A stretch of 15,911 nt of DNA. Origin: a virus (lineage: Duplodnaviria > Heunggongvirae > Uroviricota > Caudoviricetes). Shown one piece after another: positions 1 to 15,911 of the stretch; the first letter of the stretch is position 1, and the number at the start of each line of letters is the position of its first letter. Below the pieces are notes generated by a model. It was not told the origin of the DNA. It did no database searches and worked only from the letters and a program-made list of their open reading frames with translations. Location of the stretch: IMG/VR virus record IMGVR_UViG_2541047698_000016, positions 1 through 15,911 of that record. The stretch is one strand, 5' to 3'. The position numbers and the translations under genes were made by a program.

Positions 1-1362
1 ATGTTTAAACCGGAACTCCTTTCCCCGGCGGGAACGCTGAAAAATATGCGTTACGCTTTCGCTTATGGCGCAGATGCTGTTTATGCGGGCCAGCCGCGTT
101 ACTCCCTGCGTGTGCGCAACAACGAATTTAACCACGAAAATCTTCAGCTCGGCATCAATGAAGCCCACGCGCTGGGGAAAAAGTTTTATGTCGTGGTCAA
201 CATTGCACCGCACAACGCCAAGCTGAAAACCTTTATCCGTGACCTGAAACCGGTGGTGGAAATGGGGCCGGATGCGCTGATTATGTCTGATCCAGGGCTG
301 ATTATGCTGGTGCGCGAGCACTTCCCTGAAATGCCGATCCATCTCTCAGTACAGGCTAACGCCGTGAACTGGGCGACGGTGAAATTCTGGCAGCAAATGG
401 GTCTGACCCGCGTGATCCTCTCTCGCGAACTGTCACTGGAAGAGATTGAAGAGATCCGCAATCAGGTGCCAGATATGGAGATCGAAATCTTCGTTCACGG
501 CGCGCTGTGCATGGCCTACTCCGGTCGCTGCCTGCTCTCTGGCTATATCAACAAGCGCGACCCGAACCAGGGCACCTGCACCAACGCCTGCCGCTGGGAG
601 TATAACGTCCAGGAAGGGAAAGAAGATGACGTCGGCAACATCGTACACAAGTACGAACCGATTCCGGTGCAAAACGTTGAACCGACGCTGGGGATCGGCG
701 CACCAACCGACAAAGTGTTTATGATCGAAGAAGCCCAGCGTCCGGGCGAGTATATGACCGCGTTTGAAGATGAGCACGGCACTTACATCATGAACTCGAA
801 AGATCTGCGCGCCATCGCCCATGTTGAACGCCTGACCAAAATGGGCGTGCATTCGCTGAAAATCGAAGGCCGTACCAAATCTTTCTACTATTGCGCACGC
901 ACCGCGCAGGTTTACCGTAAAGCTATCGATGACGCAGCTGCGGGAAAACCATTCGATACCAGCCTGCTGGAAACCCTGGAAGGTCTGGCGCATCGTGGCT
1001 ATACCGAAGGTTTCCTGCGTCGTCATACTCACGACGATTATCAGAACTACGAATACGGTTATTCAGTTTCTGACCGCCAGCAGTTTGTTGGTGAGTTTAC
1101 CAGTGAGCGCAAGGGCGACCTCGCGGCGGTAGCGGTGAAAAATAAATTCTCCGTTGGCGACAGCCTTGAGCTGATGACGCCGCAAGGGAACATTAACTTT
1201 ACCCTTGAGCACATGGAAAACGCCAAAGGCGAAGCAATGCCGGTCGCACCGGGCGATGGTTATACTGTGTGGATCCCGGTGCCGCAGGATCTTGAGCTAA
1301 ATTACGCGCTGCTGATGCGTAATTTCTCCGGGGAAACCACGCGTAACCCCCACGGTAAGTGA
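1..1362 (+). CDS. yegQ: U32-family peptidase-like protein YegQ/TrhP (tRNA hydroxylation-associated), 453 aa
   Basis: Full-length ORF from ATG at 1 to TGA at 1360-1362. Translation matches my recollection of E. coli K-12 YegQ (453 aa, peptidase U32 family). The cyaR and ogr neighbours match the K-12 gene order. Confidence 0.88.
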   Translation: MFKPELLSPAGTLKNMRYAFAYGADAVYAGQPRYSLRVRNNEFNHENLQLGINEAHALGKKFYVVVNIAPHNAKLKTFIRDLKPVVEMGPDALIMSDPGLIMLVREHFPEMPIHLSVQANAVNWATVKFWQQMGLTRVILSRELSLEEIEEIRNQVPDMEIEIFVHGALCMAYSGRCLLSGYINKRDPNQGTCTNACRWEYNVQEGKEDDVGNIVHKYEPIPVQNVEPTLGIGAPTDKVFMIEEAQRPGEYMTAFEDEHGTYIMNSKDLRAIAHVERLTKMGVHSLKIEGRTKSFYYCARTAQVYRKAIDDAAAGKPFDTSLLETLEGLAHRGYTEGFLRRHTHDDYQNYEYGYSVSDRQQFVGEFTSERKGDLAAVAVKNKFSVGDSLELMTPQGNINFTLEHMENAKGEAMPVAPGDGYTVWIPVPQDLELNYALLMRNFSGETTRNPHGK

Positions 1363-1396
1363 TTAATTTCGATTATTTTTCCCGGATGGAAAATTC

Positions 1397-1439
1397 TTAG
1401 AAACCGATCACATACAGCTGCATTTATTAAGGTTATCAT
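1397..1439 (+). promoter_or_regulatory. Putative CRP-dependent promoter of cyaR: CRP half-site TCACA at 1408-1412, -10 TATCAT at 1434-1439
   Basis: TTAGA-N6-TCACA is a 3/5 + 5/5 match to the CRP consensus TGTGA-N6-TCACA, centred about 42 nt upstream of the inferred CyaR 5' end at 1447. TATCAT lies 7-8 nt upstream of +1. CyaR is known to be cAMP-CRP activated. Confidence 0.45.
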
Positions 1440-1446
1440 CTGTTTC

Positions 1447-1533
1447 GCTGAAAAACATAACCCATAAAATGCTAGCTGTACCAGGAACCACCTCCTTAGC
1501 CTGTGTAATCTCCCTTACACGGGCTTATTTTTT
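1447..1533 (+). ncRNA. cyaR: CyaR (RyeE) Hfq-dependent small RNA, 87 nt
   Basis: Sequence GCTGAAAAACATAACCCATAAAATGCTAGCTGTACCAGGAACCACCTCCTTAGCC... matches the CyaR sequence as I recall it, including the anti-SD-like CCTCCTTA motif. It ends in a GC-rich hairpin (TGTGTAATCTCCCTTACACGGGC) plus T7 run, a rho-independent terminator. Location between yegQ and ogr is as in K-12. Confidence 0.8.
1507..1533. other. P2-type attachment core (attL), 27 bp AATCTCCCTTACACGGGCTTATTTTTT
   Basis: Reverse complement AAAAAATAAGCCCGTGTAAGGGAGATT matches the P2 att core as I recall it. It coincides with the CyaR terminator, and prophage DNA (ogr) begins immediately to the right. Confidence 0.65.
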
Positions 1534-1596
1534 ACGCGTAATACAATGAAATAAAAGGATTTATTTCTGGTCACGTCCACACATTGACCACATCGA

Positions 1597-1622
1597 CAAA
1601 AAAGCCCCTCGACTGAGGGGCT
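1597..1622 (-). terminator. Rho-independent terminator downstream of ogr
   Basis: Hairpin GCCCCTC-GACT-GAGGGGC at 1604-1621. On the minus strand it is followed by a T-run (plus-strand A-run at 1598-1603), about 15 nt after the ogr stop. Confidence 0.5.
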
Positions 1623-1634
1623 TCCTGTTTGTAA

Positions 1635-1853
1635 TTACATCCACATAATTTGCTGCCCTGACGGCAACGGGTGCGGTCTTACGGCGTGGACTTCTCCCGG
1701 CTTCACGATGTATCGCTGTAACGACTCATAAGTGATGAACGTGGCGCTGCAATTCACGTTCTGACACTGGTGATAACGCTCTTTTGTCGTGTCAGTGATA
1801 TAGCGGCTTGTACGCGCATGTGCGGCATGCTGGCATAAAGGACAATGAAACAT
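1635..1853 (-). CDS. ogr: Ogr zinc-finger late-gene transcription activator, 72 aa
   Basis: MFHCPLCQHAAHARTSRYITDTTKERYHQCQNVNCSATF... carries the CxxC-N22-CxxxxC zinc-finger of P2 Ogr / K-12 OgrK. Start placed at the internal ATG (plus 1851-1853) to give the canonical 72 aa; the ORF-track 93-aa version is an upstream over-extension. Confidence 0.88.
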   Translation of the reverse strand: MFHCPLCQHAAHARTSRYITDTTKERYHQCQNVNCSATFITYESLQRYIVKPGEVHAVRPHPLPSGQQIMWM

Positions 1854-1934
1854 CGCGAGCACCTCTTCCGGTTTTGTTGATGGTGCCATTTTAGTTAATT
1901 TATCCTTATAAAACAAACAGATAAAATAAAGACA

Positions 1935-3098
1935 TCACTCATCATCTTCTGTTTCGTACTCCACATCAGAAAGCCTGACCTCAAGCTCTAAGGACGTCGT
2001 GAAGCCGCTATTATTCAGAAAATGTGTCACCTTAGTGATTGTCCAGTCCTGCTCGTCTATGACGCGCTTAAAGCCTGACACTTTGACCGGCGTTTCCGTG
2101 TAAATATCTGCCCGACCAGTAGCCAGACTGATGGAGAACTCCGCAACGCCCCGTTGCAGCTTATCCCACTTCGCCTGAGCGGCGCGCATGGCCTGCGCTT
2201 TCGTGGCATATACCGTGGTCAGGGCAAAAACGTTGTCAGCCTCACCAGCCATGTATTCACCTTCGCGTGCTTCCGGTACTTTTGGCGCTTTCTTCTGCGT
2301 GACTGGTTTCGCTTTCGGGTGCTCCAGTGCGCGCAGGTGTTTCTCTTTCTTTTTGCGTTTCAGTTTTACCTTCTGCTTTTGTGGCTTCGGGTCTTTGGTG
2401 TGTAACCACTTTGCCGTTACGCCGGTATAGGCGCCACGGTCAGCAATCGCAAAATGATGACGGTCACCGTCGCTGCGGGTGATGGTAATCTGCGGGATTT
2501 TTTTACCGCTGGCAGTCACCCCCTGCCCCGCTTTGAGAAACAGCAGTTTTCCCATTTTTACCGACACCTCACCGCCGTTGCGTTCTGCAAGACGGGTCAG
2601 GAATTTCGCATCAGACTCCTGCGACTGGTCGATGTGCGGGATTTTAATTCCGGCCAGTGACGGAGCGACACTGGCTTCCAGTCTGTTACGGGAGGCTATC
2701 GCCTCAACAATCGCACCGAGCGTGGTGTCATGCCAGGAGCCTTCACGGCGGGAATTGAGCGTCCCGCGGAAATCTGCACTCCGGGCGCGGATGGTGACCA
2801 CATCCGGTGCGCCCCGGTGTTCAACCTCATCAACGGTAAATTTCCCTTTGCATACCAGGGCAAAACCTTTCCAGCCGATATACACCGTCAGGACAGCGCC
2901 ACGAACCGGCAGCCCGACCTGCCCGTCGGCATCGTTCAGTTCAATATCAAGCTGGTCAGCCTCAAAGCCCCGGTTATCCGTCAGGGTCATGCTCATCAGA
3001 CGGTCGCTGATATTGCCGGTAATATCCCTGCTGTCGAGCATCAGCATGTAATCCGGCGTCAGCGTACTGCCTGCATCAAATGTCAGCGCGTCCAGCAT
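1935..3098 (-). CDS. D: Tail protein gpD (late control D), 387 aa
   Basis: Length and sequence match my recollection of P2 gpD. Position between U and ogr is canonical, and the start ATG overlaps the U stop (TAATG). Confidence 0.88.
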   Translation of the reverse strand: MLDALTFDAGSTLTPDYMLMLDSRDITGNISDRLMSMTLTDNRGFEADQLDIELNDADGQVGLPVRGAVLTVYIGWKGFALVCKGKFTVDEVEHRGAPDVVTIRARSADFRGTLNSRREGSWHDTTLGAIVEAIASRNRLEASVAPSLAGIKIPHIDQSQESDAKFLTRLAERNGGEVSVKMGKLLFLKAGQGVTASGKKIPQITITRSDGDRHHFAIADRGAYTGVTAKWLHTKDPKPQKQKVKLKRKKKEKHLRALEHPKAKPVTQKKAPKVPEAREGEYMAGEADNVFALTTVYATKAQAMRAAQAKWDKLQRGVAEFSISLATGRADIYTETPVKVSGFKRVIDEQDWTITKVTHFLNNSGFTTSLELEVRLSDVEYETEDDE

Positions 3099-3577
3099 TA
3101 TCCCGCCCCCGTCATACCCGTGAATTTAGTCGCCATACTGCCAGCCTTACCGATGAGCGATTCCGCCTGTTTACCGATATCGCCATAAAGCGCGGCCAGT
3201 GATTCATCAACGCGGGTGAGCGACAACGTAAAATCAATTTTCCGGGGTGTGCCGTCTGCAAAGAAAATACTCCCTGTTTCACTCACCCTGCTGATGACAT
3301 ACATGCCGTAAATCATGCCGGTGCCATCCAGCAACGGCCACGCCCGGCCTTCCTCTGCCATCAGCCTGAGCGTGGTCATCGTCAGCTTGCCGCCGGTCAG
3401 TTCTGGATAAAGCACACCGGCAAGCGTGATGTTTTCCTCACCCACACCGAGAAACTGGTAGGCGTCCCGTTTACCGATACGGGAATTTGACGGCCAGCGA
3501 TAATCTGATTCACGCTGCATGGTCTGGTGTGGCAGCGTCTGGCGCATAAAAACAAACATACCTAACGCGAGCATCAT
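3098..3577 (-). CDS. U: Tail protein gpU, 159 aa
   Basis: Size and position between T and D match P2 gpU. Start codon lies 15 nt downstream of the T stop. Confidence 0.85.
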   Translation of the reverse strand: MMLALGMFVFMRQTLPHQTMQRESDYRWPSNSRIGKRDAYQFLGVGEENITLAGVLYPELTGGKLTMTTLRLMAEEGRAWPLLDGTGMIYGMYVISRVSETGSIFFADGTPRKIDFTLSLTRVDESLAALYGDIGKQAESLIGKAGSMATKFTGMTGAG

Positions 3578-3591
3578 TTTTCGTCACCTCC

Positions 3592-6039
3592 TTAACCGTC
3601 ATGCATCATGCTGGCACGGGCGCGCGCACGTTTATCCCGCTCGTATTTTTCGAGCGCATCCTGTAAATGGCGGTCGAGCTGTGTCCCCGGCGCAGTACCG
3701 CCCGTCAGATTGATGTGATATTCGTTTTTACTCTGGTCCACATAAGAGCGGCCAGCCGGTGCCGTGACCGGCTGGTAAGCCTGATACCCCGCATAAGAGC
3801 CGGTCGCCGGAATATAATCACCTGTGCCATACGTGGCGGCATGAGTTCTGGCGGCAGTCTGGTCAAGTGCGTCAGACTCTTTGTTGATGACGCCGAGTTT
3901 TTCCAGTACCCAGTCAATACCGCTGCGCAGTTTGTTGAACACATTAAGCGGCAGCATCAGCGCGTCAGCCAGTGCCTGCCCGAACATGACCCCCGTGTCA
4001 CGGCAACTGTTCAGGGTGTCCTGAGTGGCTTTGACCGGGGCAATCAGGTTTTTAAACCACTGCCACGCGGCCTGTAACTTTTCACCCAGCCAGTCAAACA
4101 CCGGCTTAAGTGGCGTGAACAGTTCCCCCACCGGCGCAAATGCCACTTTCAGCCCTTCAACCACACCGCCAAAGAATGCGCTGACAGGCTCCCAGTATTT
4201 ACGGATAAGCAACGCCCCGGCGACAATTGCGGCCACCACGGCCACAACCGGCCAGCTAATCGCCCCGATGGCGGTCATAACAGCACTGCCAACCGTCGTG
4301 AAGATTGCCCCCATTGCGCCTGCTGCCGCGATGATGGCATTGATGCCGGTGATAACCGGCCAGGCTACCAGACCAATGGCACCGATGATGCCAATAAGCG
4401 CCAGCGCGCCACCGACAATGAGGCCGATGGTTGACGCCAGTGATTTGTTTTTCTGGATCCAGCCGTCGAGTTTTAACACATACTTTGTGGCCGTCTGCGT
4501 GAGCTTACGCAGTGCGCCTTCCTGCTGGTCAAACAGGTCAGTCCCCACCGCCTCATAAGCGGACTGAAACTCCTTAAATTCACCGCCGAGGTTGTCCTGC
4601 ATGATATTTACCAGCTCTGCGGTCTTTCCGTCTGAGGCTTTAAACGCAGCGGTCAGTTTGTCCAGCTTTCCGGTTGAGGCGGCAGTCATCAGCACGGCGG
4701 CGGCTGAACTGGCCTCCTCCCCGAAAATGGTTTTCATGTATTCAGCCTGCTGGGCAGTACCGAGCCGGTTTTTCTCAAAACTGGCCTGCATTTCTTTCAG
4801 AATGGTAAATACTGGTCGGGTGTTTCCCTTGCTGTCTGAGGTTTTCACACCAAGCTCTTTGAGTGCATCCCATGCTTTTCCCGTCGGTGCCTGCAGGCGG
4901 CTTAACACGGCACGGCTTCCCGTCCCCACCATTGAGCCTGTGATTTTTGCATCATGCAGCGCCCCGACCATTGCGGCGGTTTCTTCAATGCTGACACCGG
5001 CATTTTTTGCCACTGGTGCGGTATAGGTCAGCGCATCGCTCATGCCGTCAAAATCAGCGGCGGTTTTGTTCATCGTCATGGAGAGAACATCCCCGATATG
5101 AGCGACCTTATCGTTTGAAAGCTGAAAGGCGGATTTCATCCCCATCAGCAGGGCGGCGTTTTCTTCCATTGTGCGACGGTTCGCCAGCGCCATATTCAGC
5201 GTGACCGGCGTTGCCGCCTGAATGGCATCAACATCCCCACCGGCTTTCGCAATAATAATCTGCGCACCAGCTGCATCATCTGCCGAGGCTGCGGTATTGT
5301 CGCCGAGCTGACGCGCCTGCTTGCGTAGTGCAGCCATTTCGGTGGAGTCTTTTGCCACACCGAGCACGGCCTGCAATTCTGAGTTTTTCTGCGCAAACTC
5401 ATAACCGGGCATCAGCAGCTTAACTCCGGCCATCGTTCCCGCCGCCGCAATCCCCACACCGGCAGCGCCCACCGAGGCCATATTTCCGGCCAGTTCCTTT
5501 CCGGCCTGATAACGCTGTTTTACTGCGTTAAGTTTTGCCTGTTGTGCACTGACACGCGCCAGCGCGTCACGCTGCCGGTTAAGCTGTGCGGTGGTTTCAC
5601 TGATACGGTTTTTCAGTCCTCGTTCATCATGCGCCAGATTACGGGTATTAATACCCGCCTGACTCAATTCCTGACGCTGGCGCTGTACCGACAATCTCAG
5701 GCTGTTATATTTCACCTGTAACTCAGACGCATTTTTACGCGCGGCTTCCATTGCCTTTGCCTGTGCATTTGTCGGTCGTTCAGTATTTTTAAACTGGACA
5801 GCCAGAGCTGCGGCTTCCTGTCTGGCTTTTTTCAGTTCCTGACCAGTCACGGCGAGCTGTGCACTGGTCTTGCGGAATCCCTCAATACGGGATGCGTGAC
5901 CGTTCAGCTCGCGCAGTGATTTTTGTGTTTCCCGGATATCCCCCGACAGCGATTTGCTCGCTGTGCGGATGGATTTAAACGGGCGGGATGCCTGGTCAAC
6001 AGCCCTGAGCAATACCTGTAATTTTACATTGTTACTCAT
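3592..6039 (-). CDS. T: Tail tape measure protein gpT, 815 aa
   Basis: Long coiled-coil-rich N-terminal half, an Ala/Gly-rich hydrophobic central segment and a C-terminal domain, typical of tape measure proteins. Start ATG overlaps the E+E' stop (ATGAGTAA). Position is canonical. Confidence 0.88.
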   Translation of the reverse strand: MSNNVKLQVLLRAVDQASRPFKSIRTASKSLSGDIRETQKSLRELNGHASRIEGFRKTSAQLAVTGQELKKARQEAAALAVQFKNTERPTNAQAKAMEAARKNASELQVKYNSLRLSVQRQRQELSQAGINTRNLAHDERGLKNRISETTAQLNRQRDALARVSAQQAKLNAVKQRYQAGKELAGNMASVGAAGVGIAAAGTMAGVKLLMPGYEFAQKNSELQAVLGVAKDSTEMAALRKQARQLGDNTAASADDAAGAQIIIAKAGGDVDAIQAATPVTLNMALANRRTMEENAALLMGMKSAFQLSNDKVAHIGDVLSMTMNKTAADFDGMSDALTYTAPVAKNAGVSIEETAAMVGALHDAKITGSMVGTGSRAVLSRLQAPTGKAWDALKELGVKTSDSKGNTRPVFTILKEMQASFEKNRLGTAQQAEYMKTIFGEEASSAAAVLMTAASTGKLDKLTAAFKASDGKTAELVNIMQDNLGGEFKEFQSAYEAVGTDLFDQQEGALRKLTQTATKYVLKLDGWIQKNKSLASTIGLIVGGALALIGIIGAIGLVAWPVITGINAIIAAAGAMGAIFTTVGSAVMTAIGAISWPVVAVVAAIVAGALLIRKYWEPVSAFFGGVVEGLKVAFAPVGELFTPLKPVFDWLGEKLQAAWQWFKNLIAPVKATQDTLNSCRDTGVMFGQALADALMLPLNVFNKLRSGIDWVLEKLGVINKESDALDQTAARTHAATYGTGDYIPATGSYAGYQAYQPVTAPAGRSYVDQSKNEYHINLTGGTAPGTQLDRHLQDALEKYERDKRARARASMMHDG

Positions 6040-6459
6040 TCGTGTTTCCGCTTCGCCGGAGCGCCTTTTCGCGCCATGTGATGAGTTCGGTCAGGCTCAT
6101 GGGATACAGTTCTGATGGCGGCCAGTGAAATATCACTGCCACATCCGCCATCAGGTCATCGACCGAGAGATTTTTCGGAAACGTCACTGCACCGAGTTCG
6201 GCGACAAAAAACCGACCACCTTACCGGCCAGCGCCACAAGGTCAGGCAGTTCCAGCGCGGCGACCTCCTGTTCGGTCAGCATCGGTGCCGTCATGCGCGG
6301 CAGCACTTTAATCAGTGCATCGACTTCGGAGTTCGCGACCGCAGCCAGACTGACACCGCGCAGCGTCCCGGCATTGGGTTTCATCAGCGTGACCTGTTCG
6401 ATAACCTGCTCACCACGCTTGACCGGATTGTCCAGGGTAATCACATTTTCTTTGTTCAT
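6032..6459 (-). CDS. E+E': Tail assembly chaperone gpE+E', about 141 aa, made by -1 programmed ribosomal frameshift at plus 6205-6211
   Basis: After a -1 slip at T_TTT_TTG the reading frame stays open for 58 codons (...FFVAELGAVTFPKNLSVDDLMADVAVIFHWPPSELYPMSLTELITWREKALRRSGNTNE*) and ends at TAA 6032-6034, overlapping the T start. This is the architecture of P2 E/E+E' and lambda G/GT. Confidence 0.7.
6184..6459 (-). CDS. E: Tail assembly chaperone gpE, 91 aa (zero-frame product)
   Basis: ORF ends ...KVVGFLSPNSVQ*; size and position immediately upstream of T match P2 gpE. Confidence 0.85.
   Translation of the reverse strand: MNKENVITLDNPVKRGEQVIEQVTLMKPNAGTLRGVSLAAVANSEVDALIKVLPRMTAPMLTEQEVAALELPDLVALAGKVVGFLSPNSVQ
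6205..6211 (-). other. Slippery heptamer T_TTT_TTG for the E -> E+E' -1 frameshift
   Basis: Minus-strand codons GGT TTT TTG in the E frame form a canonical X_XXY_YYZ heptamer, 6 codons before the E stop. Confidence 0.65.
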
Positions 6460-6515
6460 GGTTTTCTCACTTCTGAATCAGGGTTAACCGGTCAGCCTGG
6501 CTGACCGGATGAAAA

Positions 6516-7034
6516 TCACAGGCCGATATTGCGGCGGTGTTGCTCCAGCCGGTCGACGCCGTTCACCTTCTCAATCATGTTGATGGTGTCGATTTCGACC
6601 AGCTCCTTACCGTCCATCGTCAGCCGGAAATAGGTGCAGACCACGGAGATTTTCGACTCGGTGTCTTCTCCCTGTTTACCCTCTCCGGTGTCGATTTCTT
6701 TCTGACGTCCACGCATGACTACCTCGACGGCCACCGTTTCGCCGGTATCGTCGCGCTGGTAAGAGCCTGCAAAACGAATCGGCACGGCATCCACACCGGT
6801 TGCTGCGTAAAGCTCCCAGATAACCGAATCCGGGAAACCACCGAGCGACCACTCCATTGACAGCGCATCGTCATCAAGGCCGAGGTCTACCGGTGCGCTG
6901 CCGTTCATCCCCGCACCGCGATAGTTTTCGAGCTTACGGGTCAGTTTTGGCAGCGTGACGGACTTTGCAACGCCCTGATAGCTGTAGCCGTTCAGAAAGA
7001 CGTTCATTAACTTGAGTTTGCGCGGCATTGCCAT
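6516..7034 (-). CDS. FII: Tail tube protein gpFII, 172 aa
   Basis: MAMPRKLKLMNVFLNGYSYQGVAKSVTLPKL... matches my recollection of P2 FII. Lies 12 nt downstream of FI. Confidence 0.88.
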   Translation of the reverse strand: MAMPRKLKLMNVFLNGYSYQGVAKSVTLPKLTRKLENYRGAGMNGSAPVDLGLDDDALSMEWSLGGFPDSVIWELYAATGVDAVPIRFAGSYQRDDTGETVAVEVVMRGRQKEIDTGEGKQGEDTESKISVVCTYFRLTMDGKELVEIDTINMIEKVNGVDRLEQHRRNIGL

Positions 7035-7046
7035 CGGTCAGGCTCC

Positions 7047-8237
7047 TTAATTGCTGTTAACCGAGGTGACCAGATTTGCCAGGTATTTATCGGTAATACG
7101 CTGGCGCAGGGTCAGGTTTTCGAGAGGAGGCACCGGTGTATAGTCGTAGTCGATATACAGTTTTCCGGCCTTGAGGGTTTCCGCATCGTTGGATTCTTCG
7201 CTGAACCAGCAGGTCGCATCCACGATATAGCCGTTTGTTTTCAGCTCACGGAATTTGGCATTGATGCCGTCAACGATGTCGCGAATCAGCGTTGCGGTGA
7301 TGGGCTTGTCCACCGCCCACATGTGCGCCTCAGCCATCGTGTCGGCCAGCACCTGCGCGGTGCGGGTGTAGTTTTCAAAGAGGAACAGCGGATCATCAGA
7401 GCAGGTACGGTTACCCCAGAAGCGGAAACCGTCGCGGCGAATCAGCGTAGTGACGCCTGACTCATTAAGCAGGTCAGCATCGGTGCCGGACTCCTGCAAA
7501 TCCCAGAATACAGAGGCGCTGATGCCGGTAACACCGTTCACCCCAACGTTGGACAGTGTTTTATGCCAGCCCTGCTCCTGGTCGATTTTAGCGCGCAGAC
7601 CCAGCGCACGGGCGGTGGCATACGCGGTGGCGGTGGTACTGGTGACCGTATCCCATGCGAGGAAATCCGGCCAGATGACCATCAACTCACGCTGGCTGAA
7701 ATTCTGGCGGTAGGCTTTCACCTCGGAAATAGTTTTACAGCCCCATGCGCTGATATACCCGAAAGCGCGCAGCTTCTGACAGACTGATGCCAGTGCAACA
7801 GCCACCTCTTTGGTGTCCAGTCCCGGCACGCCGAGAATACGCGGTTTAACACCGGTTACCGACTCCGCCGCCAGCAGGGCTTTCAGTCCGGTGTACTGAC
7901 CGTTTTCGTCGGTGGTGCCGATGATATTGGAAACGGTCTGCGCGAGTTTCGTTTCCTCGTCGTCGCCGGTGCCGTCTTCCACACGCACGACAACGGTGAC
8001 CGGTTTTGACTGGTCGGCGATGGCCTGCAACGATGCCGCCAGCGTGCCTTTTTTACCAGCCTTTGCAATTGCGCTCTGCACATTGGTAATCAGCACCGGT
8101 TTATTGAGGGGGAAGGTTTCCGCATCCGCATCGCTGGCCGTGCAGACCATGCCGACAATGGCCGTGGATACGGTGGAAATGACGCGGGTGCCGTCGTTAA
8201 TCTCCAGCACCTGCACGCCGTGATGATAGTCACTCAT
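7047..8237 (-). CDS. FI: Contractile tail sheath protein gpFI, 396 aa
   Basis: MSDYHHGVQVLEINDGTRVISTVSTAIVGM... matches my recollection of the P2 FI N-terminus; size is right for a sheath protein. GGAG Shine-Dalgarno 8 nt upstream. Confidence 0.88.
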   Translation of the reverse strand: MSDYHHGVQVLEINDGTRVISTVSTAIVGMVCTASDADAETFPLNKPVLITNVQSAIAKAGKKGTLAASLQAIADQSKPVTVVVRVEDGTGDDEETKLAQTVSNIIGTTDENGQYTGLKALLAAESVTGVKPRILGVPGLDTKEVAVALASVCQKLRAFGYISAWGCKTISEVKAYRQNFSQRELMVIWPDFLAWDTVTSTTATAYATARALGLRAKIDQEQGWHKTLSNVGVNGVTGISASVFWDLQESGTDADLLNESGVTTLIRRDGFRFWGNRTCSDDPLFLFENYTRTAQVLADTMAEAHMWAVDKPITATLIRDIVDGINAKFRELKTNGYIVDATCWFSEESNDAETLKAGKLYIDYDYTPVPPLENLTLRQRITDKYLANLVTSVNSN

Positions 8238-8249
8238 CCGTTTAACTCC

Positions 8250-8330
8250 GTGGTTAATGGGTGCAACTATTTTCTGTTGGGCAGAGCATGAGACGCTATT
8301 TGACCTGGCTGGTCAGTGGATGAAACAACA
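8250..8330 (-). promoter_or_regulatory. Candidate Ogr-dependent late promoter (PF-like) upstream of FI, containing the inverted repeat TGACC-N5-GGTCA at 8303-8317
   Basis: By position this must be the promoter region of the FI-FII-E-T-U-D operon. An inverted repeat sits about 50 nt upstream of a possible -10. It does not fit the TGT-N12-ACA late-promoter dyad as I recall it, so the assignment is tentative. Confidence 0.3.
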
Positions 8331-8361
8331 GATAAAGAAAAGGCGGGCAATTCGCCCGCCT
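8330..8361 (-). terminator. Rho-independent terminator closing the upstream transcription unit (G or hotspot gene)
   Basis: Hairpin GGCGGGC-AATT-CGCCCGCC at 8342-8360. On the minus strand it is followed by TTTTCTTTATCT. Confidence 0.5.
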
Positions 8362-8535
8362 GTCCTGATTTGTACTCACTCATTTTCCAACTGACTATTT
8401 ACATAGTCCAAACGCTATCAAATCTGACTGTCTGCTTTGAGCGAGGTGCTGACATCCGCATGAATGTATGGAGCTGCCGCACACTCTAAAAATGATAGAA
8501 CGTCTATATATTAATTATCCCTAAGTCCAGTTTTA

Positions 8536-9063
8536 TTAATCAATTTTATTACTTTTACCTGCAACCTTTTTATTATAGTGATAACAAGAAATAGCACTAG
8601 CAAAATAGGATTTTGTCATCGATACGAAAAAATCCAACAAATCTGCCATGTTATCAATATCAATATTTGGTTTAGTTTTACTGGCTTTAGTAATCTTCAT
8701 GTAGAAGTCCACAAACTTACTTTTTTCTTTATCCGTAATCTGATAATTCAATTGATGACTGATTTTATTTCTTATGCTGTTAAAGTCTTTTATTCTTAAA
8801 TATATTTCATCATAAGGGGGGGTTGCAGGCTCATGTTGTATTAAAGCTATTTTTTGTGAAAATGTGAGTTTTGCATCACCCCAAGCTAACGAAGGATATC
8901 TTAATCCAAGATAATCAGTAATATACTTTTCAAGGCTCAAGTGCGCAGTAAGAAAGGCACCTATGAAGGCAACGTCAACCCCATCAACACGTTCCCATAT
9001 GCTTTCATTTTCATCAGTCATACCTGTATACACAGCGGTTGATGCAAGATCTTTCCAGTCCAT
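8536..9063 (-). CDS. Hypothetical 175-aa protein in the G–FI (Z/fun-position) hotspot; candidate anti-phage / abortive-infection effector with a possible HEPN-like R-x4-H motif
   Basis: Intact ORF with AAGGA Shine-Dalgarno 8 nt upstream of ATG and its own sigma70-like promoter. Strongly AT-rich compared with flanking tail genes. Predicted soluble and mostly helical; contains ...FNSIRNKISHQ... (R98-x4-H103). I recall no homolog. Confidence 0.7.
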   Translation of the reverse strand: MDWKDLASTAVYTGMTDENESIWERVDGVDVAFIGAFLTAHLSLEKYITDYLGLRYPSLAWGDAKLTFSQKIALIQHEPATPPYDEIYLRIKDFNSIRNKISHQLNYQITDKEKSKFVDFYMKITKASKTKPNIDIDNMADLLDFFVSMTKSYFASAISCYHYNKKVAGKSNKID

Positions 9064-9098
9064 GCTTTATCCTTTTAAAGGTGAATTTAACGAGTTTA

Positions 9099-9127
9099 AT
9101 TTTATCTCAACTCAATACTTATCTCAA
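9099..9127 (-). promoter_or_regulatory. Sigma70-type promoter for the hotspot gene: -35 TTGAGA, 17-nt spacer, -10 TAAAAT
   Basis: Read on the minus strand: TTGAGA (plus 9122-9127), 17 nt, TAAAAT (plus 9099-9104). This would give a leader of about 28 nt before the ATG at 9063. Confidence 0.45.
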
Positions 9128-9452
9128 AATTTATGAGTAGAAATAACATCCACAAAAAACCATTAAAGCCCTTTTACCTCTTATTATTGATGAAAATGTA
9201 CATTTTTATAAAGAATGTCGAAGAACCTCCTCAGTGGAACTATCAACTACACATTGCAAGACTAGAGTATGTGCAAACCTTTTGACAAGGTTCTGAAATA
9301 TTCATGGTGGCCTTATTATATCAATTTATCTTCACTTTATACATTAACATAGCATGATGTTGATAATGTCCGCTCCTAGCACAGAGCGGACTGTCAGATT
9401 AGGCCTTACTCTGTACTATAGCTATGTTAACTAACACAAGAGATCATATCAC

Positions 9453-9980
9453 TTATTGCGGCATTTCCGGCCATTCAGGATTTGCAGGATCCACACGGCT
9501 GACCAGAACACTGTAGCGTTCCCATGCTTCCAGTCGGCTACGCTCCTCATCTGTTGCCATGTTCAGCCTGACAGCGCGCTCCAGTGGCAAAATCACGGAT
9601 TCAGCATCTGCAAGAAGTCTGGCTTTCCGGTTTTCTGCCTGCTGCTGCAATTCCTCTGCCGTATAAATGCGTTTAATCACTTTGCCGTCCTTAAACATCC
9701 AGTTCCCTGAAATGTCCGCCCGTCGGTTAGCAGTAATATCCGCCACTTCAACCACACTTAATCCATCTGGTCTGATAGCTGTCACATCTTTTTCCACATA
9801 GCGGATAATATTATCCTTGTCGTACGCTATTTTTATCGTGTCATCAGCAAAATACTTTTGTTCTTCGTACCAGTTCTTACCATCTTCTGTAAAAAACCAG
9901 ACAACATCAAAGTCCTTTGTCAATTGATATTGTTCAACCGTTTTTGGATTACCCGCGGTTATATTTATCAAATGCTGCAT
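9453..9980 (-). CDS. G: Tail fiber assembly chaperone gpG, 175 aa
   Basis: Conserved C-terminal ...[43 protein letters not shown] and N-terminal MQHL...GNPKT..EQYQLTK match my recollection of P2 gpG. Lies immediately downstream of H. Confidence 0.88.
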
Positions 9981-9983
9981 AAA

Positions 9984-12302
9984 TTATACCTGTGCCACGT
10001 TATACCATGTCCCGTTAATGTATTTCTGCACCGGTCTGTAATATACGCCACCAATGTTATCGGCAGAGTTTGAGCCGGTATCCTGAACAATAATGCCGGA
10101 ATATACACACCCGGACGGTGCCTGATGTGTCCATGTCATGCCATTGTTCGCAGGTTTGTATGTGGCAGCACCACCAAGCCGGATATCCCGGACATAGCGT
10201 GAATCAAAATTACTATAGTTAGATGGTGATACCTGCCCGTTAACAGCAAAAGTGATGCTGTTATCTGTATTTCTCTGACTGTAAAAATGCCAGCCTGCAT
10301 CATCACCTAATTCAGCCACCACCGGACGACTTGAGTTTCCCCACAAATTGAATGCGGCTTCCTTCGTGGATGTATTACTGCTGCTGACCGTGAATTTTTT
10401 CCCGCTACCGGCACGTACTTTGGTACTTGAGGCAATATCACCAGTAACACTCAGGCCATGCCCCATTGATACAGCACCCGTGGCATCATTTATAATCAGT
10501 GGTCTTAAATTATTATAAGTGCCTAATCTGTCACCTGATTTAGTCAACATAAAATAAGTGCTGCTGCCATCATTCCTGATAAAGAATCCATAATTGCCAT
10601 AAGCAATGCGCAGACCATTAGCACTGCTTGATGTAATCTCACCTCTTGAACGGAGACCATAAGCGGAGCTGAGTGATAATTCTTCCTGAGCATCAGTATT
10701 ACCAGTCGCCCAGCGAACTACCCCGCCCTGTACTGTTTCATGCCAGATAGTGTCTCCTTCTCCACCACGAAACTTTCTGAGATATTTTTTGCCGCCTCTG
10801 GTGCCTGAACATAAGGCCGTAGACATATAGGCATTCTGGCTTCCGCCATCCTGATTAATCGTTCCGGTCATTGCGTCGCCCTGACGATTCCAGTCACGAC
10901 GCCAGCCGGGGGAGTAGCCGTCCCCATGATTAATGTAAGTGAATTGCGCGCTGGTTGTACCGCCACCGCTTGATGTTGTCGGCGTGGTCACTCGGATAGT
11001 GATTGCAGATTTAGTTCCCATGACCTCGACGACACAACCAGCCAGGTGGATATCACCACATCCGGTATCCGTAATGATTTTGTTATTTGCATATGACCAG
11101 GAGCCTTTGCACATCCAGTACGGATGATTAAATGCACCACGGGAATCCAGCCATTCAATAAACTGAGCGGTTGTCCAGTTTCCGGCTTCAGTGCTCAAAG
11201 CGCCGCTATAAGCACGACAGGCACCGATATTTTTCGTGAAGGTATCCTTTCCCGGAATATCCGCACCGTTCTGATCTTTCTGAAGACGTTTTTCAGCATT
11301 GTCATAGGCAGACTTCACTGCTTTTGGCGTTGCCGCGAGGGTTTCAGAATCACTGTTGGTGGCGCTACTGAGCTGGACAAGCCCTTTTCGCGCTGTGGTG
11401 GCATCCTGTGCAGTGTATTTCCCGTTAGCAAGGTCATACGCTGTCTTAACCGCCTTTGGCGTTGCCGCAAGCGTTTCAGAATCGCTGTTGGTGACGCTAC
11501 TTAGCTGGACAAGGCCTTTTCGCGCGGTGGTGGCGTCCTGTGCGGTATATTTCCCGTTAGCCAGGTCATATGCTGCTTTTACCGCTTTTGGTGTTGCAGC
11601 GAGCGTTTCAGACGTGCTGTTGGTGGCACTACTGAGCTGGACAAGACCTTTTCGCGCTGTGGTGGCATCCTGCGCAGTATATTTCCCGTTAGCAAGGTCA
11701 TACGCGGCCTTTACCGCTTTCGGCGTTGCGGCCAGTGTTTCAGACGTGCTGTTGGTCGCACTGCTTAACTGAGTAAAACCTTTGGCGGTCAGCGAGGCGT
11801 CCGGGTGACGTCGTGACTGTTCGTGCTCTGCAATTTTGTCATCAACGTAATCCTGCGTCGCCATCACTGTTGTGGTGTCAATGGTCAGCTCCACTGAGGC
11901 CACACTGCTGACGATGATGACCATGCGACAGGTCTGCGAACGCCCTGAGCCTTCGGCGAGAGCTGGCTTATAACTTTCGGCCATGTTCGCCACAGCAATT
12001 AACGTTCCCGCATCATCGTACAGGCCAAGCTCACGCATCCAGAAACCGCCCACCTCCGGCGGAATAACCAGCTCTGCGATAATATAATTACTGTTTCGTT
12101 TGTCCTGGCTGATTTTGTTCAGCGCATGTCGCCAGACTTCGTGGATAAGCCCGGTCTGTCCGGCATCCGGGACAGGCAATTTACCACCGCCATCCCCGAC
12201 GGCCATCGTGGTAATGTTGACCTTCCGCCCTCCCGGTGCGGTTGCCGCTGCCAGCTTTGCTGCACCGGCAGTGGTGATAACGGTTCTGAATTTTGTGCTC
12301 AT
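9984..12302 (-). CDS. H: Tail fiber protein gpH, 772 aa, with internal tandem repeats and a mosaic receptor-binding region
   Basis: N-terminus MSTKFRTVITTAGAAKLAAATAPGG... and C-terminus ...RPVQKYINGTWYNVAQV are P2 H-like. The central region carries 44-aa tandem repeats and a Cys/Trp-rich domain. Confidence 0.88.
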   Translation of the reverse strand: MSTKFRTVITTAGAAKLAAATAPGGRKVNITTMAVGDGGGKLPVPDAGQTGLIHEVWRHALNKISQDKRNSNYIIAELVIPPEVGGFWMRELGLYDDAGTLIAVANMAESYKPALAEGSGRSQTCRMVIIVSSVASVELTIDTTTVMATQDYVDDKIAEHEQSRRHPDASLTAKGFTQLSSATNSTSETLAATPKAVKAAYDLANGKYTAQDATTARKGLVQLSSATNSTSETLAATPKAVKAAYDLANGKYTAQDATTARKGLVQLSSVTNSDSETLAATPKAVKTAYDLANGKYTAQDATTARKGLVQLSSATNSDSETLAATPKAVKSAYDNAEKRLQKDQNGADIPGKDTFTKNIGACRAYSGALSTEAGNWTTAQFIEWLDSRGAFNHPYWMCKGSWSYANNKIITDTGCGDIHLAGCVVEVMGTKSAITIRVTTPTTSSGGGTTSAQFTYINHGDGYSPGWRRDWNRQGDAMTGTINQDGGSQNAYMSTALCSGTRGGKKYLRKFRGGEGDTIWHETVQGGVVRWATGNTDAQEELSLSSAYGLRSRGEITSSSANGLRIAYGNYGFFIRNDGSSTYFMLTKSGDRLGTYNNLRPLIINDATGAVSMGHGLSVTGDIASSTKVRAGSGKKFTVSSSNTSTKEAAFNLWGNSSRPVVAELGDDAGWHFYSQRNTDNSITFAVNGQVSPSNYSNFDSRYVRDIRLGGAATYKPANNGMTWTHQAPSGCVYSGIIVQDTGSNSADNIGGVYYRPVQKYINGTWYNVAQV
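11300..11790. repeat. Tandem repeat, 132-bp unit, about 3.7 copies, in frame within H (44-aa phage tail-fiber repeat)
   Basis: Unit starts at 11341, 11473, 11605 and 11737, with a partial copy from about 11300. Copies are roughly 90% identical and encode (Q)LSSATNS(T/D)SETLAATPKAVKAAYDLANGKYTAQDATTARKGLV. Confidence 0.85.
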
Positions 12303-12312
12303 TATTCCTCAC

Positions 12313-12843
12313 TTATCCGGGGTAAACCGTAATTACATCGCCGTCGTAAGCCACACCACCGGCGAACAGGTAGCCGGGAATGTCCCGGGTAATGTTCAGG
12401 CCAATAAGGTGGCGGCTTGCAGGTTTGGCATCAGCAATCAGCCGTTCCATTTCCTGATACATTGCCTCTGTGATGCCGCTTTCCAGTACACCAATATCAA
12501 GCCGGAAGGTGCCGGGCGGGTCACTGTTTTCCCACCACTCCGTCACGTTGATGAGATAGCCGAGCGGCTCCACCACACGCCGGATTGCACCTATTGTGCC
12601 TTTATGACAGTGGATGAAATACGCATCGCGGATAACGGCGCGTTTTGTCGCTTCCGGCCACTTTTCATCCCACCTGTCGACCGAAAACGCCCACGCCAGC
12701 CACGGCAGCAGATTTGCCGGACAGGTGTCCGGGTTCCACAGCTCACGAATACTGACCGGCGTTTTTTCAATTTCCGCACAGGCTTTTGCGGCGGCGACCT
12801 CAAGCGGTGATGAGCCGGTCGGCAGCAGTCGCGAATCACTCAT
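12313..12843 (-). CDS. I: Baseplate protein gpI, 176 aa
   Basis: Size and position between J and H are canonical; start overlaps the J 3' end by 8 nt. Confidence 0.85.
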   Translation of the reverse strand: MSDSRLLPTGSSPLEVAAAKACAEIEKTPVSIRELWNPDTCPANLLPWLAWAFSVDRWDEKWPEATKRAVIRDAYFIHCHKGTIGAIRRVVEPLGYLINVTEWWENSDPPGTFRLDIGVLESGITEAMYQEMERLIADAKPASRHLIGLNITRDIPGYLFAGGVAYDGDVITVYPG

Positions 12844-13744
12844 CCGAGCCTCCGGTCACGACGCGGTATTCGGTACAGAAAGACGCCTGCGTACTGTTGA
12901 GCACGATGTCGGCCAGTGGTGCAGCCAGTTCGACACGCTGCACACCTTCCACATGCAAAGCGGCATAAATGGCAGACAGACGGATGTCGCGCCCCAGCCT
13001 GTGCTGTGCCGTGATATACGCTTCCAGCTTTTTCACAGCGGCAGCGCGGATGGGTTCGCTTTCGGGACCAGGGTAAAGGTAAAGCGTGGCGTTTATCTGG
13101 TATTCAACGATGGCGGCAGACTGCACGGTCACGCGGTCGGCCACCGGCCTGACGTCCTCGCCATTAAGGGCGTTACGCACCACAGCCAGCAGGTCTTCGG
13201 ATGCGACGCCGTTATTTTCACGTGACAGCACAGAGATAGTGACGCAGGCCGGAGACGGACTGGTGACAGAGATATCCGCGACACGCCCGTCGGCACTGCG
13301 GCCATGATACTGATAGGCACCCACCGACCCGGCGACGCTTAAACCTTCAAACGCCTGCTGAATACGCAGCCGATAATCGGTGTCAGATTCCATCACTGCC
13401 GGTGTCGGCGGAATGGTCGAATCATCTGCCGGGGTGATAGTCAGGCGCGTGGTGTTGTAATTGGCACCAATCACATCAAGGTCATTACCGGCGGCACAGG
13501 CCAGCATCACCGCCCGTGCGGCCTCATTCACACGCTGACGCCAGATAAGCTCACGATAAGCATTTTCTTCCAGCAGTTTGACGAGAGGCTCAGATTCCAG
13601 TGTCAGGGTACGGGCGACCGCCTCCTGCTGATCTTCCGGGTAAAGGGAAATCAGTGTCGCCTTGCGTTCAGCGAGAATGCTTTCAAAGTCCAGCTCCTCG
13701 ACCACATCCGGTGCGGGTAGCTGGTTCAGGTCGATAATCGGCAT
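12836..13744 (-). CDS. J: Baseplate assembly protein gpJ, 302 aa
   Basis: Size and position between W and I are canonical for P2; gpJ is a gp6-like baseplate wedge protein. Confidence 0.85.
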   Translation of the reverse strand: MPIIDLNQLPAPDVVEELDFESILAERKATLISLYPEDQQEAVARTLTLESEPLVKLLEENAYRELIWRQRVNEAARAVMLACAAGNDLDVIGANYNTTRLTITPADDSTIPPTPAVMESDTDYRLRIQQAFEGLSVAGSVGAYQYHGRSADGRVADISVTSPSPACVTISVLSRENNGVASEDLLAVVRNALNGEDVRPVADRVTVQSAAIVEYQINATLYLYPGPESEPIRAAAVKKLEAYITAQHRLGRDIRLSAIYAALHVEGVQRVELAAPLADIVLNSTQASFCTEYRVVTGGSDE

Positions 13745-13748
13745 GGTT

Positions 13749-14096
13749 TCAACTCACAGGGATGGTTAATGAAAGTGGCTGGCCGGTGTCGTTGTGCTGG
13801 CCGGTTAACGTGACCGTCATTCGCCCGTCAAAACTGCGCTCAGTGGTGACGGATGACAGGGTGACGCGGGGTTCCCATTTCAGCACCGCCATGTAACAGG
13901 CGACCTTAATCTGCAACTCAAGCGCCGGGGTCTGCGGCTGGTCAATCATTGATGCCAGCAACGAGCCGTAATCACGACGCATCACCCGTGAGCCGACCGG
14001 TGTGCGCAGGATATCGCCGATACTCTGGCTGATATGCTCAAGGTCAGTGACAGTCAGGCCATCACTGCGATTCATTCCGAGATAACGCGCTGTCAT
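13749..14096 (-). CDS. W: Baseplate protein gpW (gp25-like), 115 aa
   Basis: Size and position match P2 gpW; start ATG overlaps the V stop (ATGA). Confidence 0.85.
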   Translation of the reverse strand: MTARYLGMNRSDGLTVTDLEHISQSIGDILRTPVGSRVMRRDYGSLLASMIDQPQTPALELQIKVACYMAVLKWEPRVTLSSVTTERSFDGRMTVTLTGQHNDTGQPLSLTIPVS

Positions 14097-14728
14097 AAAG
14101 GACTCCCGGTTGTGCCGCCGCTGTCGCCGGGGTGTTTATGGGTATGCAGTACCTTACCGTTTGATGAGAGTTCACCGCCGGTGTGTTCAATGTTGCCGCG
14201 CATCGTCCCGCCCTTCTGCACTTCCAGCGTGCCGGTAGTCAGTTTGTTGGTGCAGACCACTTCCGGTGTGTCCAGGGTGATGCGGGTTGATGCTTTCACC
14301 ATAACCACCGGCACCGTGGCAGTAACAGAATCAGAAGCCATCACGCTGGCCGTTTTAACTCCGCTTACCGTGAGCGCACTGGTTTCAGGTTCATACTCAA
14401 TCACCGCCCCGTCAGGGAAACGGATATGCAGGGCATCCGCCGACGCAGACGGCGCGGGGTTATCGCCGGAATAAATCCCCGGCAGAACGAACGCCGTGTC
14501 GAGTTCACCGCCCACGGCCAGAATCAGCACCTGTTCCCCCACGGAAGGTGCCCACCATGTGCGCGAACGTCCGGCGCGATGGGTCAGCCACTGAAGCCAG
14601 TCGGTGCACATGCCGCCGGTCTGCACACGGCAGCGACCGGCGTTAAGGTCGGTTTCGACGATAATACCGGTGCGGATCATGTTGCGCAGTGCACGCGCGA
14701 GTTCCTGAATATTTGCGAGAGTGTTCAT
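14093..14728 (-). CDS. V: Baseplate spike/hub protein gpV, 211 aa
   Basis: MNTLANIQELARALRNMIRTGIIVETDLNAGRCRVQTGG... matches my recollection of P2 gpV (211 aa). Start placed at ATG (plus 14726-14728) rather than the ORF-track TTG at 14746. Confidence 0.82.
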   Translation of the reverse strand: MNTLANIQELARALRNMIRTGIIVETDLNAGRCRVQTGGMCTDWLQWLTHRAGRSRTWWAPSVGEQVLILAVGGELDTAFVLPGIYSGDNPAPSASADALHIRFPDGAVIEYEPETSALTVSGVKTASVMASDSVTATVPVVMVKASTRITLDTPEVVCTNKLTTGTLEVQKGGTMRGNIEHTGGELSSNGKVLHTHKHPGDSGGTTGSPL

Positions 14729-14811
14729 GCATGTGAGATTGCACAATATATAAAAGTTATGCTATCTGGATTCATTTGTAGAACTACCAGACAACATTCA
14801 AGGAGAGCGTA

Positions 14812-15597
14812 ATGGTCAGCTATAATGTGACTAATGTGTGGGGGCTAATCGTTTTTTTCCTTTGTAGCTTTGCAGTATTAGCATTTTTTAGCTTTGGTAA
14901 AAGTAACCTTATGAGGCTTATTGCACATTATTTCAATTTTGGATATTCAGACAAAAAATTAAAAAGACTTGACCGCGAGTGGCGCGACATTCAACTATTT
15001 AAAATAATTAACGGAATCAATGTATCAGGCATTGAAAATGTGAGAATGATACAGCAGGGACTGATTGATGGAAAACTAAAAACATCGTATTTTTTTCTTA
15101 CTCGCATCTGGGGTGACATAACAAAACCACCACACATAATTAAAACAATAATTGTAATTCTGGCCAGTATTTTTTACATTCTCCTCGCATGTTACATACA
15201 CAACGTACAATCCGTTATAGTAAGGGATGCCATAGGCATACCATATAAAAACATGATGTACTATGTTTATAGTGACAAAGTTCTTTTATCCTTCAAAAAT
15301 AAAGCAGTTGAATTTAATAAAACTTATAGCCTTGCCGATTGCAAGAGACTGCAAAACGTATTTATAAAAGACACACTTCCTGAGATCGCCTGCAATAAGC
15401 TCTTACAGCTAAACGAGGAGGACTCCGAATGGTTAAGCCAGGAGATTAAAGATAATAACAGTCACAAAAAAGCATTATTAATACTATCCCTCGTCTATTT
15501 CACTTCAGGTCTGGTTATATTCCTGTCATATACAAAATTCTTTTACGCCAATAAGAAGGTTTTAGAATACAAAGCATCAAATAAAAATCACTCATAA
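14812..15597 (+). CDS. Hypothetical 261-aa integral membrane protein (3 predicted TM helices), AT-rich moron at the S–V junction; candidate exclusion/defense factor
   Basis: ATG preceded by AGGAGA Shine-Dalgarno at 14800-14805. Strongly AT-rich. Hydrophobic segments at about residues 10-28, 112-132 and 222-240. Divergent from V. I recall no homolog. Confidence 0.65.
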   Translation: MVSYNVTNVWGLIVFFLCSFAVLAFFSFGKSNLMRLIAHYFNFGYSDKKLKRLDREWRDIQLFKIINGINVSGIENVRMIQQGLIDGKLKTSYFFLTRIWGDITKPPHIIKTIIVILASIFYILLACYIHNVQSVIVRDAIGIPYKNMMYYVYSDKVLLSFKNKAVEFNKTYSLADCKRLQNVFIKDTLPEIACNKLLQLNEEDSEWLSQEIKDNNSHKKALLILSLVYFTSGLVIFLSYTKFFYANKKVLEYKASNKNHS

Positions 15598-15603
15598 ACC
15601 TCT

Positions 15604-15638
15604 AAACATTGAGCGACCAGCATGGCCGCTCAATGTTT
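15604..15638 (+). terminator. Hairpin, possible terminator for the membrane-protein gene
   Basis: Perfect 12-bp inverted repeat AAACATTGAGCG / CGCTCAATGTTT with an 11-nt loop, starting 7 nt after the stop codon and followed by TTTAATTG. The T-tract is imperfect. Confidence 0.35.
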
Positions 15639-15700
15639 AATTGCGCATCAGCCTCTGCCTGGATAAAACTAACGCTCAAGGTGAGCCAGGATAATCTCTT

Positions 15701-15911
15701 TAGACTGGCCCCCTGAATCTCCAGACAACCAATATCACTTAAATAAGTGATAGTCTTAATACTAGTTTTTAGACTAGTCATTGGAGAACAGATGATTGAT
15801 GTCTTAGGGCCGGAGAAACGCAGACGGCGTACCACACAGGAAAAGATCGCAATTGTTCAGCAGAGCTTTGAACCGGGGATGACGGTCTCCCTCGTTGCCC
15901 GGCAACATGGT
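15701..15911 (+). mobile_element. IS2 (IS3 family) left end, partial; continues beyond the window
   Basis: TAGACTGGCCCCCTGAATCTCCAGACAACCAATATCACTTAAATAAGTGATAGTC... matches the IS2 left inverted repeat as I recall it, followed by the insC start. Confidence 0.85.
15792..15911 (+). CDS. insC: IS2 transposase OrfA (InsC), N-terminal 40 codons only
   Basis: [40 protein letters not shown] matches my recollection of the K-12 IS2 InsC N-terminus; CDS is truncated by the window end. Confidence 0.85.

Follow-up and report, generated by a model that had tools for sequence, protein, structure and literature searches.

CyaR (RyeE) is a small RNA with a CRP-cAMP-dependent promoter and an Hfq-dependent mode of action, and it has been studied as a normal sRNA in K-12. 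The cyaR site is presumably locI, the primary P2 attachment site in E. coli, in agreement with the insertion-site literature. Tyrosine recombinases carry out strand exchange inside a short overlap region within the core of such sites. The genome paper on E. coli W names 'cyaR RNA' as a P2 insertion site, holding Wphi2 (P2) in strain W, ogr-D′ in K-12, and P2*B in REL606 (PMC3032704, Table 2), and gives the same site as empty in Crooks (PMC3032704). According to Bobay et al., phages had already been recognized as targeting ryeE of E. coli, a point for which they cite Wassarman et al. 2001 (PMC3603311). Insertions in the 3′ ends of tRNA, tmRNA, and sRNA genes have been described for a number of other phages and sites, including 186 in tRNA-Ile, Fels-2 and SopE-phi in ssrA, and the sdsR/ryeB site in Salmonella (PMC3603311, PMC3448106, PMC3333887).

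The stretch of DNA analyzed here (the window) comprises the 15,911 nucleotides of IMG/VR record IMGVR_UViG_2541047698_000016. Its junction between bacterial and phage DNA is almost certainly the cyaR side of a P2-like (Peduovirus) prophage, produced by Int-mediated site-specific insertion at the primary P2 attachment site of E. coli, and no data in the analysis contradict this explanation. The junction is ordinary, well documented, and already known, and the arrangement is shared by about 20% of complete E. coli genomes (1113 of the 5426 in the RefSeq set contain at least 80% of a query spanning the yegQ-cyaR-ogr-D junction). The features on the host side and around the junction are as follows.

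1–1362, plus strand: yegQ/trhP, U32-family tRNA hydroxylase gene, upstream of cyaR (Pfam Peptidase_U32 and Peptidase_U32_C; annotation of matching genomes)
1445–1533, plus strand: cyaR (ryeE) (RF00112 match at 1445–1530, U-tract to 1533; two-hairpin fold with the terminator last)
1498–1533, plus strand: CyaR intrinsic terminator (terminator scan, MFE fold, Rfam consensus structure)
1507–1533, no strand: 27-bp P2 att core, the cyaR-side prophage junction (identity to P2 attP; breakpoint at 1507)
1532–1565, no strand: IHF binding site of the attP P arm, by homology (P2 annotation, L001 1526–1559, shift +6)
1569–1596, no strand: Int arm-type binding sites of the P arm, by homology (P2 annotation, L001 1563–1590; identical to P2)
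1601–1624, minus strand: intrinsic terminator of ogr and the F late operon (P2 annotation, scan, and fold)
1635–1853, minus strand: ogr, late-gene activator of 72 aa (Pfam Ogr_Delta; one aa differs from P2 Ogr)

The att core, AATCTCCCTTACACGGGCTTATTTTTT, is present as a single copy in the window even when up to three mismatches are allowed, and the core search gave 0/200 matches in shuffled sequence. The initial annotation had called it a 27-bp P2-type core, and it is indeed identical at 27 of 27 positions to the annotated attP of P2 (NC_001895, 24356–24382). When window positions 1480–3100 were compared by megablast with a phage collection, the matches to P2 and to several Peduovirus records began at query base 28, which is window base 1507, and pairwise alignment with P2 is unrelated to the left of this base and ∼97% identical to its right. 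Host DNA therefore lies left of the core and the phage P arm right of it, and prophage DNA follows CyaR directly, as had been proposed. Base 1507 is also of practical use as an exact prophage boundary. Over 1507–1934, the window and P2 align without indels, which allowed the elements annotated in P2 to be transferred directly; the IHF site and the Int P-arm site occupy the gap between the core and the ogr terminator.

The host gene at this junction is intact. The Rfam family RF00112 (CyaR/RyeE) matches the plus strand at 1445–1530 with 100.7 bits against a gathering score of 47 (E-value in the window 1.5e-19), and the full model is covered (positions 1–85 of 85). In the MFE fold of CyaR, a small hairpin precedes the terminator stem of 11 bp (5′ arm 1498–1508, 6-nt loop 1509–1514, 3′ arm 1515–1525), and the terminator tail TATTTTTT occupies 1526–1533; the tail of the folded RNA, UAUUUUUU, ends at 1533. 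The core had been equated with the terminator hairpin and U-tract, which is correct for the loop, the 3′ arm, and the U-tract but slightly overstated for the 5′ arm, of which the core holds only the last 2 of 11 nt, the other nine bases (1498–1506) lying outside it in host DNA only. The gene lies 3′ of yegQ, with an intrinsic terminator, in the window, K-12, B, and EC77 alike, and positions 1445–1533 show 0 mismatches both to K-12 and to the unoccupied site, with predicted folds that are also alike. The CyaR RNA sequence is unaltered by prophage insertion. Regeneration of the sRNA 3′ end from phage-borne sequence was first suggested; because the phage and host cores are identical, which of the bases are phage-borne is not readable from the sequence, and the RNA is the same in either case. 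A literature search for the strand-exchange positions within the P2 core returned nothing usable.

Small differences are found on either side of the RNA. In the cyaR promoter region, a few bases 5′ of the RNA start, position 1441 is T in the window and C in K-12, the B derivative, and EC77; this is the sole difference from the empty site over 1363–1533 and the single difference from K-12 over the promoter region at 1363–1446. On the 3′ side, the sequences first diverge just after the sixth T, where lysogens and K-12 have A. Host flanks after the stem read ATGCAT or TATGCAT, giving 6 or 7 T, and because they differ in this way, a one-base change in the flank falls within natural variation.

The opposite end of the prophage was sought in relatives. 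The prophage of E. coli EC77 (NZ_CP196708), which is 33.3 kb long and 99.7% identical to window positions 1–15700, carries two identical cores in the same orientation (L003 2723–2749 and 36041–36067), and its far end runs through C, int (L003 34948–35961), the P′ arm, and the second core into the host gene yegR. The second core anticipated at the far boundary is thus present after int in EC77, and also at 67 int-side junctions of the survey below; the window itself ends inside IS2, short of the int end, its own far end lying outside, and a second core, int, and overall completeness are presumed for its copy from these relatives. The unoccupied site likewise has the predicted form, yegQ-cyaR-yegR. 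It was found in an E. coli B derivative (L005), where no insert separates the genes and the core at the end of cyaR is followed by T, then by ATGCATAAGCCC, and by the rest of the host flank up to yegR.

An exact scan for the 27-mer across viral contigs (IMG/VR) and species representatives gave 148 core copies in 145 loci, mostly from IMG/VR. Copies lying between cyaR and the P arm numbered 59 of the 148 and those between the P′ arm and the host flank 67; four were empty sites, and one was the attP of P2 itself. Twelve others, in Kluyvera and Enterobacter, had cyaR and core with unrelated flanks. The remaining five comprised three copies that ran off the locus before the flank became classifiable, one with a divergent left flank, and one int-side copy with an unrelated right flank. 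All 131 classified copies that are phage-associated or at empty sites belong to the classes expected from recombination between attP and attB.

Several further observations were made at these loci. Many IMG/VR prophage contigs have the core at exactly 1507–1533 counting from the yegQ ATG, and the window therefore probably represents a similar prophage prediction, made on a draft contig whose break falls in the IS2 repeat. The exact core also ends cyaR in many Kluyvera species and in Enterobacter hormaechei (L006, L008–L010, L013–L018, L020, and L024), where the flanks are unrelated and hold no relic arm of the kind described below; attB is therefore conserved beyond Escherichia. Two loci (L007 and L025) have a divergent P2-like arm at the same site. 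At four IMG/VR int-side junctions (L038, L056, L108, and L115), the host flank begins with ACGCGTAA, as in the phage arm of the window, in place of the usual ATGCATAA, and the identity between the two junctions reaches 8 bp past the 27-bp core; gene conversion between the two att copies and host polymorphism are both possible origins. In several complete E. coli assemblies (H1, H4, and H7–H9), ogr is found on the minus strand ∼28–30 kb from the record start, and these chromosomes appear to have been rotated to begin inside a P2-like prophage, probably as an artifact of automatic start-fixing.

The structure of the junction and of its relatives is consistent with the following sequence of events, in which the parts played by the proteins are drawn from established P2 biology. 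The attB site is the 27-bp 3′ part of cyaR, where the intrinsic terminator has its loop, descending stem arm, and U-tract, and attP holds the same 27 bp, such that recombination inside the core leaves identical sequence at both prophage ends and CyaR unaltered. Int, IHF, and Cox would act at these sites, with strand exchange presumably taking place in a short overlap region within the core. After insertion, the U-tract adjoins the phage P arm with its IHF and Int arm sites, followed by the minus-strand ogr/F terminator, ogr, and the tail genes. The second copy of the core, at the far end as seen in relatives, is abutted by int and the P′ arm and leads into the old host flank and yegR.

Beyond ogr, the window consists almost entirely of P2-type late genes and ends in an insertion sequence.

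1935–3098: D, by P2 annotation
1935–15700, minus strand: P2-type late/tail gene block (Pfam; RefSeq annotation of the collinear GF43 and EC77 prophages)
15701–15911, plus strand: IS2 left end, running off the window (divergence from EC77/GF43 at 15700/15701; NF006928)

A 93-aa reading frame in the mechanical ORF list corresponds to ogr with an upstream TTG extension. The block reads D, U, T, E/E′, FII, FI, a cargo ORF, G, H, I, J, W, V, and a plus-strand cargo ORF, and its final part is the last 32 nt of an S homologue. Pfam matches include Ogr_Delta, Phage_GPD, Phage_P2_GpU, PhageMin_Tail, Phage_tube, Phage_sheath, and Caudo_TAP, the DNA is 96–98% identical to Peduovirus records, and the late-gene order of P2 is kept. 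The first cargo ORF (8536–9063, minus strand, 175 aa) separates FI (tail sheath) from G (tail-fibre assembly) and presumably occupies the Z/fun cargo position of P2; its sole match is to phrog_5483 (unknown function), and Pfam, NCBIfam, and PADLOC gave no hit. Its length equals that of G, and it was considered as a second tail-fibre assembly gene, which was rejected as it has no similarity to G. The second (14812–15597, plus strand, 261 aa), which separates V from S and is encoded on the other strand, presumably occupies the P2 orf30 cargo position and has a full-length match to phrog_2407 (unknown function) and to no other family. Its counterpart in GF43 is split by an IS3-family element, an insertion that the window copy does not carry.

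The IS2 element interrupts the S (virion morphogenesis) homologue 32 nt ahead of its stop, at a cost of ∼10 codons (the S gene of EC77 corresponds to window positions 15669–16121), and the first 40 aa of the IS2 ORF match NF006928, 'IS2 repressor TnpA', at positions 1–40 of 121 (E = 1.4e-23). The S::IS2 junction was found in none of the 5,426 complete E. coli genomes and in none of the IMG/VR viral contigs. The K-12 locus had been described as an ogrK-containing remnant of which the window would be a fuller form, and the comparison agrees, with ogrK and a 213-bp D fragment in K-12 against at least 14.2 kb of prophage in the window. One account of the whole element, which the analysis leaves as a real though somewhat less than even prospect, is that it is a grounded, decaying prophage, a stage on the way from a full P2 lysogen to the ogrK-D′ relic of K-12, with a cyaR-side junction that is a fixed scar and no longer excisable. 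The position of IS2 inside the 3′ end of the S homologue would fit such a state, as would the presence of a different insertion sequence (IS3 family) in the same prophage of GF43, the closest complete genome, and K-12 would represent the end state of the decay. Set against this are the small cost of IS2 to S, only the ∼10 last codons, the 14 kb of late genes in the window, in which all ORFs are intact and of P2-like length, and the near-identical copy in EC77, a complete one that has both cores as well as int, cox, C, A, and the capsid and terminase genes, all of which would fall outside the window. With its IS2 near the end of S, the window copy may be defective and may already be on a decay path toward the K-12 ogrK-D′ remnant.

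A second account, first raised in the initial annotation, concerns regulation across the junction, namely that CyaR read-through runs antisense to ogr, or that transcription of ogr and the F operon collides with cyaR, such that lysogeny alters CyaR 3′ ends or ogr expression. This is pure speculation and is considered improbable. The two terminators do face each other, 67 nt apart, the ogr terminator lying on the minus strand close to the ∼65 bp from the core end at which it had been placed. Only CCTGTTTGT, a weak U-tract, comes after the ogr hairpin on the plus strand, and CyaR read-through is made plausible by a published value of 41% intrinsic read-through at the CyaR terminator, measured with a double-terminator plasmid in delta-hfq K-12 cells (PMC9765468). 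Both genes nevertheless end in strong hairpin terminators. That of ogr, labelled in P2 as 'rho-independent terminator for ogr transcript and F operon', is a GC-rich hairpin at 1602–1623 (−20.1 kcal/mol, z = −4.1); its minus strand carries T6, seen on the plus strand as a run of A6 ahead of the hairpin. The sequence and fold of CyaR are moreover the same with and without the phage, host flanks already vary between 6 and 7 T after the stem, and K-12, in which CyaR was characterized, has the exact junction (0 mismatches over 1445–1630). The widely studied CyaR of K-12 is thus already a CyaR at a phage junction, which is of practical relevance in its own right.

The last account, in which the 27-mer is merely the native cyaR terminator, the phage genes came by another route, and the match to P2 attP is coincidental, can claim the presence of the 27-mer in empty sites too, but it is ruled out for practical purposes by a P2 homology breakpoint exactly at the core edge, the P2 arm sites that come next in their annotated order, the second core adjoining int in relatives, and the fit of 131 of 131 classified copies to the attP × attB junction classes.

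The host flank to the right of the empty-site core, TATCTCTGGTAACCGTCTTCCATTGACCACATCGA, aligns with the P2 P-arm region TATTTCTGGTCACGTCCACACATTGACCACATCGA, and it was located as follows.

L005 3548–3583 (empty site), L003 ∼36081–36116, and L004 ∼4179–4214: P-arm-like host flank, with its counterpart in the window phage arm at 1561–1596

The local alignment score of the flank against the P arm is 38, and 2000 dinucleotide shuffles gave a mean of 13.7 and a maximum of 25, by which a chance origin of the P-arm-like flank was rejected. The flanks can be arranged in a series that starts from the functional P2 arm, proceeds to a copy that has decayed but keeps full length and correct spacing, next to cyaR in the cryptic-clade Escherichia sp. 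MOD1-EC7003 (L026), and continues through a form with a 4-bp deletion (L032 and L118) to one with a 16-bp deletion, which is the common E. coli flank. A 15-mer Int arm-type site, CATTGACCACATCGA, is invariant in all aligned flanks. The simplest reading of these alignments suggests that the 'empty' attB next to cyaR is a scar of an older P2-type prophage, a relic that is well supported, and such a fossil P arm suggests repeated insertion, decay, and re-use at one site. If the arm site still binds the Int N-terminal domain, it could help make the site a preferred P2 target, and the int-side junction of every lysogen would be a near-attP, with P′ arm, core, and relic P arm; that the retained site is functional in this way is a conjecture to which only a small probability is attached.

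The locus is a textbook case in which a temperate phage targets the 3′ end of a conserved RNA gene and carries a copy of that end, and the host gene survives. One close counterpart is the lysogen of P2 itself (NC_001895), with which it shares the identical 27-bp core, the order of core, IHF site, Int P arm, ogr/F terminator, ogr, and D, 96.7% identity over ogr-D, and the gene order of the tail region; the differences from P2 are 5 substitutions between core and IHF site, a tail-fibre gene H of greater length (772 aa), other cargo ORFs at the Z/fun and orf30 positions, and the IS2 insertion. The cryptic remnant of K-12 (cyaR-ogrK-D′-yegR) has the same left junction, with 0 mismatches over 1445–1630 and 9 over 1363–1934, and the same host neighbors, yegQ and yegR. 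In contrast to the window, however, K-12 (MC4100) retains only ogrK and 213 bp of D, and of its right core just CTACACGGGCTTATTTTTT is left, fused to D; a deletion reaching from D into the int-side core therefore gave rise to the relic. Wphi2 of E. coli W and P2*B of REL606 agree with the window in insertion site and phage type (PMC3032704) but carry different alleles and different cargo, E. coli W matching window positions 1000–2400 at 97.9%. As in other insertions into the 3′ ends of RNA genes, the phage copy restores the RNA 3′ end and the target is a conserved hairpin. Unlike in the tRNA-type cases, the target here is the terminator of an Hfq-dependent sRNA and not a tRNA-like structure, and the duplication, at only 27 bp, takes in just part of the hairpin.
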